Origin: an uncultured Eubacteriales bacterium
GTDB taxonomy: Bacteria; Bacillota; Sulfobacillia; Fermentithermobacillales; Fermentithermobacillaceae
NCBI GenBank assembly: GCA_964641455.1
Contig: CAZXLH010000002.1
Coordinates: 50,774 to 114,773 of the forward strand
Length of the DNA: 64,000 nucleotides
Direction: 5' to 3'
Both the position numbers and the translations under genes were made by a program. Below the pieces are notes generated by a model that was not told where the DNA came from, made no database searches, and saw only the letters and a program-made list of their open reading frames with translations. This document shows, one piece after another, positions 21,210 through 54,842 of the stretch; positions within the stretch are counted from its first letter, which is position 1; every line of letters starts with the position of its first letter.

Positions 21210-22106
21210 TTAGCCCAGCGCTCCGCCAGACGTAGGAATCAGCACTACTTGCCCTGGTACGAGCACATTAGGATCTGCAATTTGTGGGTTAAATGCGATA
21301 AGTTCATTTAAACTAACTGCAAATCTTTGCGCGATAGAGAACATGGTATCACCGGATTGCACAACATATTTTCTGCCTGGAGAAGGAGCAGGCCCTGGGC
21401 CCGGCGTAGGAGGCATTGGTCTTTTGGGCACAACAATGATCTCTCCTACTATAATCATATCCGGATTCCTTACCTGAGGATTAGCTCTTATCAAAGCTTC
21501 GAGTGAAACCCCGAACCGTCTCGCTATGCTGAACATAGTGTCACCAGATTGAACCACGTATTGAGTAGTTTCTGCCGGAGGCATTGCAGGAGGTTCAGCC
21601 GGTGGCTTAGAAGGTGGCGGAACTGAAACATCAGGTAAGGTTATCTTACATTTCTCGGCGATTTTACGTACCAGATGCATTTGGTCTGCCTTTCGCCGGG
21701 TTACCCTTTCCAATATGGCTCGTTGGATCGGCTCTGATGCATGTGGATCGATTTTGATGTATCCATTGTCAATTACGTGCATGAAATGGCGATGGATAAC
21801 TATGATGCATGTTGTGAAGTCATCAGGAACGGTTATGGCGATGACAGTACCTTTATCCTCCACTCCCATGACAGCCATTAACTCAGTGCAATCAGCAAGT
21901 ACGTGATTGTGAATTGAGGCCAGTTGCTCTGCTTCATCAAGACAATTATGTTGCCCGGATAATGTCAGGCACTTTTCCAGTGTTGGAACTATCTGTTTTT
22001 CAGTTGTCCAAGTAAGAATGCAAGCATCACGAAGGGTGCTTTCAGTCATTTCTTCTCTCCCCCCGGATCGATAAAAATGGGACATGACGGTAGCCTTCTC
22101 TTCCAA
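21210..22106 (-). CDS. Protein with two C-terminal LysM domains separated by proline-rich linkers and an unknown ~150-aa N-terminal domain.
   Basis: The motif YVVQSGDTMFSIA occurs twice. There is no signal peptide or TM segment. The gene is transcribed divergently from lexA. Confidence 0.65.
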   Translation of the reverse strand: MEEKATVMSHFYRSGGREEMTESTLRDACILTWTTEKQIVPTLEKCLTLSGQHNCLDEAEQLASIHNHVLADCTELMAVMGVEDKGTVIAITVPDDFTTCIIVIHRHFMHVIDNGYIKIDPHASEPIQRAILERVTRRKADQMHLVRKIAEKCKITLPDVSVPPPSKPPAEPPAMPPAETTQYVVQSGDTMFSIARRFGVSLEALIRANPQVRNPDMIIVGEIIVVPKRPMPPTPGPGPAPSPGRKYVVQSGDTMFSIAQRFAVSLNELIAFNPQIADPNVLVPGQVVLIPTSGGALG

Positions 22107-22271
22107 CCTATGTCCTTGAATTACTTTTGGTTACTTTGCCGGCATGTGTATGGCCAATTTATATCCTTGTTAGCCGGCCTTCTATGTTTACCTCCGCAAT
22201 CTTGAGGCGGGCGATGAAAACTACCAAACTGACGTTTGCTTTTCAAGTGAATTGATGGTACACTCTTTCTG

Positions 22272-22286
22272 AGAAGCCATGCTTCT
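22272..22286. promoter_or_regulatory. Palindrome AGAAGC-CAT-GCTTCT about 30 bp upstream of the lexA start, overlapping a second CTTCT-TTT-AGAAG palindrome. It is a candidate operator.
   Basis: The palindromes were read directly from the sequence. The intergenic region contains no GAAC-N4-GTTC Cheo box. Confidence 0.3.
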
Positions 22287-22315
22287 TTTAGAAGTATACA
22301 CAAGGAGAGGTGAAA

Positions 22316-22927
22316 ATGGAGAAACTAACCTTCCAGCAAGCCAGGGTACTTGAAGCCATCCGTCAATATATACGTGAGGTTGGTTATCCCCCATCAGTAA
22401 GAGAATTAGGCAAAAGGTTGGGCCTAAAATCGACTGCCACTGTTCATAGCCACCTCAGAACCCTTGAACGCAAGGGCTATTTACGTAGAACCGCTCAGAA
22501 GTCACGTGCTTTTACTATTGTAGAAGATACAGAAAATGATCAGCCGGCACCTGCTGTGATGGTACCTATAGTAGGCATGGTCCGTGCCGGCGTTCCGGTA
22601 CTGGCTGTTGAAAATATAGAAGAGTTTGTGCCTTTGCCCCGCTCGTTTGTTAGGAGTGAAAATGTATTCATGCTTCAAGTAGAGGGCGACAGCATGATAG
22701 GTGCAGGTATTTTCAGCGGTGATTTCGTACTTGTAAGGCAGCAGGAAACGGCAGATAACGGAGATATCGTTGTAGCGCTTATCGATGATGAAGCAACAGT
22801 AAAAACCTTTTACAGAGAAAAACATACAATCAGGCTTCAACCGGAAAATCCCAAACTCAAACCAATATACTCAAAAAATGTTCGTATACTTGGTAAAGTA
22901 ATCGGGTTATACCGGTCATTCCACTAA
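22316..22927 (+). CDS. lexA: LexA SOS repressor.
   Basis: The N-terminal winged HTH reads GYPPSVRELGKRLGLKSTATVHSHLRTLERKGYL, and the C-terminal S24 peptidase carries the cleavage-site sequence VAG and an S...K dyad. An AAGGAGAGG RBS lies 6 nt before the ATG. Confidence 0.85.
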   Translation: MEKLTFQQARVLEAIRQYIREVGYPPSVRELGKRLGLKSTATVHSHLRTLERKGYLRRTAQKSRAFTIVEDTENDQPAPAVMVPIVGMVRAGVPVLAVENIEEFVPLPRSFVRSENVFMLQVEGDSMIGAGIFSGDFVLVRQQETADNGDIVVALIDDEATVKTFYREKHTIRLQPENPKLKPIYSKNVRILGKVIGLYRSFH

Positions 22928-36935: not shown

Positions 36936-37096
36936 ACGGGCTTTCCATTTCTATATTATCCTTTTTGACGGCTATGTTCTCACCTGAATACAGGTATTTG
37001 GCATATAGGCGGGAACTTTTGCCGGGCTGCAAACATATGTACAATAAGATTACAAAGATCATAGCAAACTAAACTCTTTTACTTGGAGTGTATACA

Positions 37097-45512: not shown

Positions 45513-45720
45513 ATACTGGCTCAATTATGTTAATACCTGGTTTTAGGACCATCTATATAAACAAACAACAATTTGTGAAATTGACTATGACTTATATATT
45601 CACAAGATCAAAAACACCTAGAATCTTTGAACAGTCAAAACAATGTTATCACCGTCAGTTGTTCACGTTAAACAGTAAATTATCCAGGCATCAATTCGCA
45701 TCAAAGCCAGCATCACACGG

Positions 45721-46191
45721 CTACTCTACGTCACTTACCCGACCGAATGTCCTCACTACCGATAATATGGTTGCTTCGGTAAATCCTCTTCGAAATAACC
45801 ATCTGGCCAGGCGTTGCGTGTCTTTCAATGTCCATTGGGTTTTGCCTTTTGCATACTGTCTTGCCGCAGTACGCGCCAGGCTTCGCTCATCTAACTCTGC
45901 GTAAACTTCGTCAATCAAAGTTTCCGCAAGTTGCTTATCGAAACGACGTTTCCTGAGTTCGTAAAAGCAACGTTTCTTGCCACAAGGTTTATTTCGTATA
46001 ATTGCATCCAAAATATTTTTGGCAAGCACTGTATCGTTAAGATAACCCCATTCCTTAAGTTTCTCAATACATGTGTCTATTTCACCCGACGTAAATTCTT
46101 TTCGCGAGAGCATAAATTTCATCTGGCCTGAACTAACTTGCCGCCTTGCCAAGATTCTCAGGGCAGCATTCATGACACTCTTATTTCCCAT
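45721..46191 (-). CDS. recX: RecX regulatory protein.
   Basis: The translation is 156 aa with RecX helical repeats and overlaps the end of recA. Confidence 0.75.
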
Positions 46192-47248
46192 GGCGTTTAC
46201 CGGACTTTGACTTTGAATCCTTAACTTCTTTAGTTTTAGCCTTATCCTCTTCTTCTTGCGCTTCAGGCCTTAATAGGTCCTTGATTTTGGATTCTACCTC
46301 TTTGCTGATTTCAGGATGGCTCTTAAAGAATTCCCTGGCGTTTTCTTTACCCTGTCCAAGTTGTGTTTTCCCGTAATAATACCAGGTTCCCGTTCTGGTG
46401 ATAATGCCCTTTTCTACACCTACGTCCAAGAGTGAACCTTCACGGGAAATGCCTTCTCCAAAGATTATGTCGACCTCTGCATCCTTAAAAGGCGGAGACA
46501 ACTTATTCTTTACAACTCTTATCCTGGTTCTTGCACCTATGGTTTCCTGCCCTTTTTTCAGATTTTCAATTCTTCTTACATCGAGCCTCACTGAAGAATA
46601 AAATTTAAGGGCTCTCCCACCAGGAGTAACTTCAGGATTTCCGAACATTACGCCAATCTTCTCACGCACTTGATTTATGAAAATGGCAGTTGACTTTGAC
46701 TTAGCCACCACAGCAGTAAGTTTCCTTAGTGCTTGGGACATCAAACGCGCCTGAAGGCCTACGTGGGCATCACCCATTTCGCCTTCGATTTCAGCGCGTG
46801 GAGCCAAAGCTGCCACAGAATCTACTACGATGCAATCCACAGCACCGCTTCTAACCAAAGCTTCGACTATTTCCAATGCTTGTTCTCCGGTATCAGGTTG
46901 GGAAATAAGAAGGTTTTCTATGTCCAACCCTAGATTCTTTGCATACATAGGGTCCAAGGCATGTTCAGCATCGATAAATGCAGCAATTCCTCCCGCTTTC
47001 TGTGCTTCTGCAACGATGTGCAGAGCCACGGTTGTCTTACCTGAACCTTCTGGGCCATAGATCTCCACAATTCGCCCTCGAGGTATACCTCCGATTCCAA
47101 GAGCAATGTCCAATGCCAGGGCACCGGTTGGAATAACATCTACTTGCAATTTCTGAGAAGATTCTCCATACCTCATTATGGAACCTTTGCCGAACTGCTT
47201 CTCTATTTGCGCAACCGCCAACTCCAGAGCCTTTTCTTTTTCTAACAT
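46181..47248 (-). CDS. recA: Recombinase RecA.
   Basis: The translation contains GPEGSGKTT, the L1/L2 loops, and [14 protein letters not shown]. Confidence 0.95.
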
Positions 47249-47276: not shown

Positions 47277-47306
47277 ATATAACCCTGACAGTCCATTCCC
47301 AGTCAA
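47277..47306 (-). promoter_or_regulatory. Putative sigma-A promoter for recA, reading TTGACT-N18-TTATAT on the minus strand.
   Basis: The hexamers were read from the reverse complement. A half Cheo-like box, CGAACATTTGTGT, lies at 47345-47357. Confidence 0.4.
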
Positions 47307-47360
47307 GTATAACATCAGCAAGAACAAGGAGCAATCACATATTACACAAATGTTCGCCTA

Positions 47361-52559: not shown

Positions 52560-54842
52560 TTGGGTATGTCTAGTTCGGATATAGGCTATGTACTACGGGA
52601 TCTACGCCAGGATCCCAGATTCATGGCTTGCATAACTGGCTGGCATCATTTATCGGCTACTCCGGCTGATTATCTCGCTATCCCACATGACTTGCATCCT
52701 TCATTGAAACAAGCACTGAGCCAAAAGGGAATAAACGCGCTTTACGCTCACCAGCGAGATTCTTATGATCGAATTTCAAATGGCGAAGATATTTGTGTGG
52801 TAACTCCGACGGCATCAGGCAAGACTATGTGTTACAATTTGCCTGTGTTGGATTCGATCCTCAAGAATGATGCAACTTGTGCTTTATACATATTTCCGAC
52901 TAAAGCGCTTGCCCAAGATCAACTGGTTGAACTTCGTAATATGTGTAAGCCGGGTGGGTTTTCGATAAGATGTTTTAGTTATGATGGCGATACACCTTCA
53001 TACAAAAGAGGCATTGCGAGGCAAGCAGGGCAGATTATAATTACTAATCCAGACATGCTGCATCTGGCTATTCTTCCTCACCATTGTGCATGGGCCGGTT
53101 TTTTTGCCAGGTTGAAATATGTAATTATTGATGAAATGCATCACTACAGAGGGGTTTTCGGAAGCCATGTAGCCAATGTTTTAAGGAGGCTTATGCGAAT
53201 TTGCCTCTTCTATGGAACAACACCTCAATTCATTTTGGCTTCTGCAACAATTGCAAACCCAGGCGAGTTGGCTTCGGCTCTAACAGGCAGATCAGTGTCG
53301 TTGGTTGACAAGAGCGGTGCCCCGGTGTCAGAGAAGGATTTTATTTTTTACAACCCCCCCGCTCTTAGCAGTGAAGGTTCAATCAGGCAATCGGCAATAA
53401 ATGCTGCATCAAGGATTGCTTTACGGTTTGTTAGAAACAACATTCAAACTTTGATTTTTGCAAAATCCAGAAAGTCATGTGAATTGCTGGTACAATACCT
53501 TAGAAATTCGTTCACTGATGAGCCTAAGAAAGGCAAAGTTCAGGGTTATCGGGGTGGGTACTTACCTAAGCAACGAAGGGCAATAGAGGAAGGCCTTCGG
53601 AACGGAGATATTATAGGCGTAGCTGCCACCAACGCGTTAGAACTGGGAATAGATATAGGCAATCTTGATGTGGTGGTTATGGCGGGTTACCCGGGAACCA
53701 TATCCAGCACTTGGCAGCAAGCAGGCAGAGCCGGAAGAAGGCAAGCAAAGTCTGTTGTTATCTTAATAGCAGCAAGTTCTCCCCTTGACCAGTTTATAAT
53801 AAGCAACCCTGATTACTTCTTTGCCCAAAGCCCTGAACACGCAATGGTAAATCCCAATAACCCCTATATCCTTGAGCAACATGCAATGTGTGCAGTTTAC
53901 GAGCTTCCGTTTAGCACCGATGACATAGCATTCAGAGGCATAAGGATTCAACCTATCTTGGAAGATTTGGCCAAAAGAAAAATCCTGGACAAAGATTCAT
54001 GCAGGTGGAATTGGCCTTCGAATGGTTTTCCTGCAGCCGGGGTGAGTCTGAGATCTGCTGCCTGTGACAATTTTACTGTAATAGATATAACTCATAACTA
54101 TAAAACCATAGGCCGGGTTGACCGGGCTTCGGCTCCAATATTAATCCACGAGCAGGCTATCTATATGCATAAGGGGCAGCAATATCAAGTTATCAAATTA
54201 GATTATCAAAGCGGAAAAGCTTATGTAAAACAAGTTAACGTAGATTATTATACTGACGCTAACCTGGCTGTAGGCATCAAGGTCATGTCAGTTGAGAAAT
54301 CTTCCCGGGCCTTCCCTGTCAAATTCGGTAAGCTCTGTGTTACTGCGCTTGCCACCGTTTACAGAAAGATTAGGCTTTATACCAACGAGAATATCGGATC
54401 AGGCGAAATAAGCATTCCTGAAGCCAATTTGCATACCCAAGGCACATGGTTCCATATCCCCGATGATCTATGCAGTAACATCGAGCCATACTTGATAGGG
54501 CGTATACTTTTCGGAATCGCTAATGTGTTATCGAATATTGCTCCTTTGTTTCTTATGAGCGACAAGCAAGATTTGGGAGTCTCAGTAGAAGTTCGTTCTG
54601 CCTATGACGGTAAGCCTACGATATACTTATATGATTCTCATCCAGGCGGGCTGGGTTTGGCGGAAAAGACGTTCCATATTCTTCCCTATATCATAAAAGC
54701 CGGCCTTGATTTAATTTCATCTTGCCAGTGCCCAAAAGGTTGTCCCGGATGTGTGGGCCCTGAGCAAAAAGCCGGCCATTATGTTAAGATTTCGTGCCTT
54801 GAGGTGCTTGGTGCCATAAGTTCAAGGGTTAGGCCCAATTAA
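52560..54842 (+). CDS. DEAD/DEAH-box helicase with a C-terminal DUF1998 4-Cys domain (MrfA/YprA family).
   Basis: The helicase motifs I (TASGKT), II (DEMH) and VI (QAGRAGR) are present. The C-terminus reads CQCPKGCPGCV. Confidence 0.75.
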   Translation: MGMSSSDIGYVLRDLRQDPRFMACITGWHHLSATPADYLAIPHDLHPSLKQALSQKGINALYAHQRDSYDRISNGEDICVVTPTASGKTMCYNLPVLDSILKNDATCALYIFPTKALAQDQLVELRNMCKPGGFSIRCFSYDGDTPSYKRGIARQAGQIIITNPDMLHLAILPHHCAWAGFFARLKYVIIDEMHHYRGVFGSHVANVLRRLMRICLFYGTTPQFILASATIANPGELASALTGRSVSLVDKSGAPVSEKDFIFYNPPALSSEGSIRQSAINAASRIALRFVRNNIQTLIFAKSRKSCELLVQYLRNSFTDEPKKGKVQGYRGGYLPKQRRAIEEGLRNGDIIGVAATNALELGIDIGNLDVVVMAGYPGTISSTWQQAGRAGRRQAKSVVILIAASSPLDQFIISNPDYFFAQSPEHAMVNPNNPYILEQHAMCAVYELPFSTDDIAFRGIRIQPILEDLAKRKILDKDSCRWNWPSNGFPAAGVSLRSAACDNFTVIDITHNYKTIGRVDRASAPILIHEQAIYMHKGQQYQVIKLDYQSGKAYVKQVNVDYYTDANLAVGIKVMSVEKSSRAFPVKFGKLCVTALATVYRKIRLYTNENIGSGEISIPEANLHTQGTWFHIPDDLCSNIEPYLIGRILFGIANVLSNIAPLFLMSDKQDLGVSVEVRSAYDGKPTIYLYDSHPGGLGLAEKTFHILPYIIKAGLDLISSCQCPKGCPGCVGPEQKAGHYVKISCLEVLGAISSRVRPN

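Follow-up and report, generated by a model that had tools for sequence, protein, structure and literature searches.

A putative CAAAC-N4-GTTTG variant of the Gram-positive LexA operator at the lexA promoter of an uncultured Bacillota family

LexA operators of Gram-positive bacteria and their known variants

The Cheo or DinR box of B. subtilis, other Firmicutes, and Actinobacteria has the sequence CGAAC-N4-GTTCG, and the layout of the Gram-positive LexA box is described as GAAC-N4-GTTC (PMC4951493). The search patterns for LexA operators of the clostridia C. difficile, C. perfringens, and C. acetobutylicum include GAAC-N4-GTTT, and the C. difficile protein binds the recA operator AGAACAAATGTTTGTA in vitro, as recorded by surface plasmon resonance (PMC4234289). 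In Verrucomicrobia, the LexA motif is TGTTC-N4-GAACA, and changes in helix 3 have been proposed to alter the readout of the half-site (PMC4951493). The residues of helix III that contact DNA in E. coli LexA are Ser39, Asn41, Ala42, Glu44, and Glu45 (PMC3091678).

The window considered here, meaning the whole 64-kb stretch of DNA that was analysed, carries lexA and recA of a member of an uncultured thermophilic Bacillota family. Judged from sequence, its lexA looks like an ordinary autoregulated gene, whose operator departs only mildly, in a lineage-specific way, from the known LexA box of Gram-positive bacteria and clostridia. This reading removes an apparent anomaly: the lexA gene of the family would not be without an operator, and the SOS circuit looks conventional.

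The lexA locus and the palindrome at its promoter

The lexA gene (22316-22927, + strand) encodes a protein of 203 amino acids with the Pfam domains LexA_DNA_bind (2e-25) and Peptidase_S24 (2e-36). Up to position 47, helix 3 included, it can be aligned with E. coli LexA without gaps, and its recognition helix reads S39-T40-A41-T42-V43-H44-S45-H-L. The self-cleavage parts are also kept, namely the Ala-Gly site and the catalytic Ser and Lys residues, with RAG, GDSM, and TVK at matching positions in an alignment to the LexA proteins of E. coli and T. maritima. Both domains, the cleavage site, and the Ser/Lys dyad being present, the protein qualifies as an intact LexA, and its description as Gram-positive-type in a first-pass annotation holds for the recognition helix. 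The helix 3 pattern S-x-x-T-V-H-x-H-L and the intact self-cleavage domain are features shared with the LexAs that use Cheo boxes. Divergent from lexA lies a gene for a protein with two LysM domains (21210-22049, - strand; Pfam), in which a signal peptide or membrane segment is not detected. This divergent gene order of lexA and a LysM gene is a classic one. By its orthologues, the LysM gene appears to start at about 22049 with MTESTL..., so that the real intergenic region is 22050-22315.

Neither GAAC nor GTTC occurs in 22107-22315, as had been reported before, and the same is true of 22050-22315. Such a lack is found in 20% of 5000 shuffles of the 209 bp (P about 0.2). The accompanying statement that an AGAAGC palindrome is the only dyad symmetry of the region was mistaken. 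Within 22107-22315, at 22225-22238, lies the perfect 5-4-5 palindrome CAAAC-TGAC-GTTTG, a putative LexA operator without strand orientation, which had been missed because only GAAC and GTTC were searched. It differs from the Cheo box by a symmetric pair of changes, G to A at the second position and C to T at the thirteenth, and it is the sole exact match in the 64-kb window.

The conservation of this box becomes apparent in the related genomes. A genome scan with the LexA protein yielded 14 relatives, labelled Candidatus Fermentithermobacillaceae or Bacillota MAGs and derived from anaerobic digesters, with LexAs 74-88% identical to that of the window, along with 23 more distant lexA loci. When the 260 bp upstream of lexA are compared among the 15 family sequences (window plus 14 relatives), four blocks alone can be aligned, the flanks being otherwise unalignable. 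These blocks are (C/G)CAAAC-N4-GTTTGC, an extended -10 of the form TG-n-TA(A/C/G)ACT, the ribosome-binding site, and the start codon; besides promoter -10 and ribosome-binding site, the CAAAC box is thus the only element of the region conserved in relatives. Both arms, CAAAC and GTTTG(C), are the same in 15/15 genomes, and the spacer takes nine forms (TGAC, TTAT, TTAC, TAAC, ACAA, ACCA, TGGC, TAGC, and TTGC). Furthermore, all 15 exact copies of CAAAC-N4-GTTTG in 212,849 bases of family DNA stand at lexA. In a scan of the window with a matrix built from the lexA sites, the lexA box scores 24.3 bits and the runner-up 13.6. The alignment of relatives had been named beforehand as a possible refutation of the absence of a Cheo box; a box did turn up, in a variant form and not as the standard Cheo sequence. 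An alignment of orthologous promoters finds the LexA site at once.

The box stands in a fixed geometry with a promoter that is deduced from conservation only. A probable -35 element, TTGCTT (22236-22241, +), is placed 17 nt upstream of the conserved -10 and shares 3 nt with the right arm of the box; its TTGC is invariant in the alignment of lexA upstream regions. The likely extended -10, TGgTACACT (22256-22264, +), has invariant TG-T-A-ACT columns and reads TGgTAAACT in most relatives. From the end of the box to the TG of this element, the distance is 17-18 nt in 15/15 genomes. The lexA transcript is predicted to start at about 22271-22272. A simple scan of 22000-22340 for sigma-70 promoters and terminators called nothing; the lexA promoter was missed by such a consensus scan because 8/12 positions match. 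The ribosome-binding site, read from the sequence, is AAGGAGAGGTG (22302-22312, +), with invariant GG..G columns in the alignment.

Several properties of a Gram-positive LexA operator are found together in the lexA box: arms of 5 nt around a spacer of 4 nt, conserved arms with a free spacer, and a place within or adjoining the (predicted) promoter of an SOS gene. Like the Cheo box, it is a 14-bp palindrome at the lexA promoter that overlaps the -35. Unlike the Cheo box, it has A and not G at position 2 and T and not C at position 13 in 15/15 genomes. Accordingly, the half-site core in both arms is AAAC and GTTT, and the GAAC and GTTC tetramers are absent from the box. Its spacer TGAC is less AT-rich than those of typical Cheo boxes. 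Compared with the clostridial operator, the right half GTTT(G) is identical, but the clostridial sites keep GAAC in one half, whereas both halves are AAAC/GTTT at lexA here; the recA gene of the family, by contrast, keeps CGAAC with a degenerate second half, GTGTA. As in the Verrucomicrobia, the GAAC-N4-GTTC theme is varied while the dyad spacing is kept. However, the verrucomicrobial case is a real specificity change with mutagenesis and several regulon members behind it, whereas here each half-site differs by one transition, which falls within the known degeneracy, and a GAAC half still stands at recA. At each of the distant Clostridia lexA loci found with LexA, one to five boxes stand at similar distances, mostly GAAC-N4-GTTC or GAAC-N4-GTTTG. 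Symmetric AAAC-N4-GTTT occurs at three distant lexA loci, those of a Lachnospiraceae MAG, Ca. Gallimonas, and a Christensenella MAG. In 80 diverse recA promoters among the metagenome matches listed for RecA, all from distant relatives with at most 72% identity, 28 boxes are GAAC/GTTC, 8 GAAC/GTTT, 3 AAAC/GTTT, and 1 AAAC/GTTC. A GTTTG half-site for LexA is already established; particular to this family is its occurrence in both halves, invariantly. A search for LexA boxes in lineages that resemble Clostridia should thus admit RAAC-N4-GTTY and not only strict GAAC/GTTC.

Since the box has the 5-4-5 layout of Gram-positive LexA sites, differs by one transition per half, and resembles boxes of Clostridia, it is most likely a LexA operator. 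The probability that lexA is autoregulated through this putative Cheo-type operator at 22225-22238 is put at roughly 0.8. A LexA dimer would bind the 14-bp palindrome, and as its right arm overlaps the presumed -35 TTGCTT of the extended -10 promoter, the bound protein would block RNA polymerase. RecA-stimulated self-cleavage would then release LexA. In the right arm, C to T at the same time makes the TTG of the -35, which would account for the sequence of this arm. The left-arm G-to-A change would have no such promoter reason, yet A is found there in 15/15 genomes. Its invariance without promoter constraint argues that LexA accepts, and perhaps prefers, AAAC half-sites, and suggests selection for A at the lexA operator. 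The proposal that autoregulation is weak or lost is at odds with a Cheo-type palindrome overlapping the -35 that is invariant in 15/15 genomes.

The space between the two divergent genes holds further sequence features. Upstream of the LysM gene, at 22100-22140 on the - strand, a conserved GTAACCAAAA-N12-(G)ACATAGG(C/T)TGAAA is observed, the same as in three relatives (L004, L005, and L007). The sequence is similar to promoters used in the mother cell during sporulation (SigK/SigE-like, AC-N17-CATA---T). Despite the classic gene order, the LysM protein may belong to the spore coat and not be an SOS division inhibitor of the YneA kind. Additionally, a small acidic ORF of 92-103 aa, which is divergent from lexA and has the conserved C-terminus EPENFWLDQDIWPWP, separates lexA from the LysM gene in 7/14 relatives. 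It lies on the - strand at 2525-2833 in L001, 2538-2816 in L002, 2530-2817 in L003, 2472-2774 in L006, 2471-2782 in L008, 2556-2858 in L011, and 2526-2819 in L013, and is missing from the window, L004, L005, and L007. The CAAAC box is situated 75-120 nt upstream of its start, and the ORF could be a LexA-controlled gene.

Rival readings of the lexA upstream region

The palindrome to which attention had been drawn initially does exist. AGAAGC-cat-GCTTCT, AGAAGCcatGCTTCT (AGAAGCCATGCTTCT), lies at 22272-22286 on the + strand as the sole exact match in the 64-kb window, and CTTCT-TTT-AGAAG overlaps it at 22282-22294 (+). It is very improbable, however, that these two repeats are the LexA operator of the lineage and replace a Cheo box. 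The perfect 6-3-6 dyad adjoins the promoter, at about +1 to +15, and its outer bases AGAA...TTCT resemble AGAAC-N4-GTTCT, but the AGAA and TTCT tetramers are 7 nt apart as against 6 in that sequence, and G takes the place of the C of GAAC, the most conserved position of that tetramer. When the 209 bp are shuffled 5000 times, 35% of the shuffles contain one or more perfect inverted repeats with arms of 6 nt and a loop of 0-10 nt. Moreover, the dyad and its spacing are not conserved in the orthologous promoters. The AGAAG/CTTCT arms are kept in 2/14 relatives with a variable gap (5 nt in the window, 4 in L001, 6 in L006), which argues against a protein-binding dyad; the other 12 have no such dyad and keep only a purine-rich start and the pyrimidine tract TTCTCTCA. 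The CAAAC box, 47 bp upstream, is the better candidate. The palindrome, positioned at or after the predicted transcript start, is thus probably not an operator, an idea largely refuted by conservation, and is probably fortuitous.

Since the predicted lexA leader would begin with the 15 nt of the palindrome, AGAAG and CTTCT might instead act as RNA, either in an mRNA-stabilising 5' stem-loop or through anti-Shine-Dalgarno pairing that tunes translation. The pyrimidine tract (CTTCT in the window, TTCTCTC in relatives) is conserved in the closer relatives and is able to pair with the ribosome-binding site. RNAalifold, applied to 9 leaders, joins the tract to GGAGAGGT in its consensus, and compensatory change is found in 2/8 pairs; this pairing is weak, with an energy of only -2.9 kcal/mol and a covariation term of about 0. 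The fold of the single 60-nt leader is not significant (z = -0.81, 38/200 shuffles as good), and no Rfam family reaches its gathering score in the whole 64-kb window, so no tRNA, riboswitch, or T-box is found there. The start of the transcript is itself a prediction from the promoter. A function of this kind is therefore rather unlikely, and a role of the palindrome in leader structure has a low probability. Most likely, the palindrome arose by chance from the combination of a purine-rich start with a pyrimidine tract able to pair weakly with the ribosome-binding site. Another possibility concerns the CAAAC box, which might be the site of a different transcription factor controlling lexA, LexA autoregulation having been lost. 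The canonical GAAC is absent, and the motif is not found at recA or elsewhere in the window and the 212,849 bases of family DNA, so what ties it to the LexA regulon is its position and architecture. Nevertheless, the box shares the LexA layout with one different base per half, and its position relative to the lexA start matches the LexA boxes of other Clostridia. Mixed GAAC/GTTTG and symmetric AAAC/GTTT boxes stand at lexA and recA promoters of other lineages, clostridial LexA binds GTTTG half-sites (PMC4234289), and no other regulator gene is linked to the lexA locus in the gene neighbourhood examined. A foreign regulator is thus improbable, and autoregulation by LexA through the CAAAC box is the preferred reading.

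The recA site, LexA residue 41, and other genes of the window

The candidate operator was examined at two SOS promoters, those of lexA and recA. The recA gene (46181-47248, - strand; Pfam RecA 2e-140) is followed by recX (Pfam). The half-Cheo match upstream of it, CGAACATTTGTGT(A), is indeed present on the - strand at 47343-47356, one base away from where the first-pass annotation had placed it. The putative weak operator there, CGAAC-ATTT-GTGTA (CGAACATTTGTGTA), has a canonical left half, CGAAC, and a degenerate right half, GTGTA, and fails to match the lexA-derived matrix. Family RecA homologues retrieved by protein search gave eight contigs and, with the window, nine upstream regions. CGAACA-N3-GT(G/A)TA is present in 6/9 of these promoters, window included, with differing flanks; the exceptions are L125 with CGAACACGCGTACT, L124 with a degenerate site, and L121, where it is absent. 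A likely promoter spans 47306-47334 (-), with the -35 TTGCTC at 47329-47334, a 17-nt spacer, and the extended -10 TGtTATACT at 47306-47314. In the alignment of the nine regions, the TTGC of the -35 and the extended -10 TGTTATACT are conserved, and 8 nt separate the box from the -35 downstream of it. Of the eight retrieved loci, seven share the gene order cinA-ligT-recA-recX-rny; L124 has two genes between ligT and recA.

The recA match is thus a conserved element and probably a weak operator, and in the proposed circuit this weaker CGAAC-N4-GTGTA site just upstream of the -35 would act beside the lexA box. As CGAAC is conserved at recA, the LexA of the family would still use the canonical half-site and probably accepts both GAAC and AAAC. 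The earlier suggestion of a diverged LexA motif in this lineage is therefore right only to a mild degree, with CAAAC-N4-GTTTG at lexA and a canonical CGAAC half kept at recA. The specificity of the lineage appears not to have switched; at most, the second position is read as a purine, G or A. In L121, the region upstream of recA (2880-2960) keeps the promoter and has lost CGAAC-N4-GTGTA, a sign that the family may do without LexA control of recA or that this control varies among its members.

A protein counterpart of the AAAC half-site may be sought in helix 3. The LexAs of the family have Ala at the position of E. coli Asn41 (15/15), whereas the GAAC-using LexAs of the same data set have Ser. 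Two distant LexAs with Ala41 and the helix 'STATAY' (L026 and L030) have AAAC-N4-GTTT as their only lexA box, and in the data set of lexA loci, all 17 LexAs with 'STAT' in helix 3 have an AAAC-N4-GTTT lexA operator. None of the Ser41 LexAs (n=11) has AAAC-N4-GTTT as its only box, and GAAC-containing boxes occur in all of them. It is conceivable, though doubtful, that replacement of Ser by Ala at the Asn41 equivalent has relaxed or shifted the half-site readout of the family LexA, so that RAAC is read in place of GAAC and A is preferred, and that some Christensenellales-like Clostridia have undergone the same change, independently or jointly. As the association of Ala41 with AAAC comprises only two or three independent lineages, it is a lead and not a result. 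If true, it would represent a small, traceable step of the LexA motif in which protein and site change together. The link offers a testable, though incremental, lead on the drift of LexA specificity.

By Pfam, the other large genes of the window include mutS, mutL, an MrfA-like helicase gene, rny, cinA, and ligT, and no further classical SOS gene is found among them. Matrix and pattern scans for further boxes in the window gave weak matches only. One of these, at 45562 upstream of rny, is judged a chance match. Another, CAAACATATGTACA at 37030-37043, combines a perfect CAAAC half with a GTAC half like that of the L125 recA site. It lies in the divergent intergenic region between a cysteine-desulfurase (iscS)/ThiI operon and a PP-loop ATPase gene, and is probably due to chance because it overlaps a likely extended -10 (TGTACAAT). 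The MrfA-like helicase gene (52560-54842, +) encodes DEAD and Helicase_C domains, an HRQ1 winged helix, and an MrfA Zn-binding domain, and no LexA-type box is present in the 38-bp region upstream of it. The gene is located near the recA cluster, and its homologue in L122 stands directly upstream of cinA.
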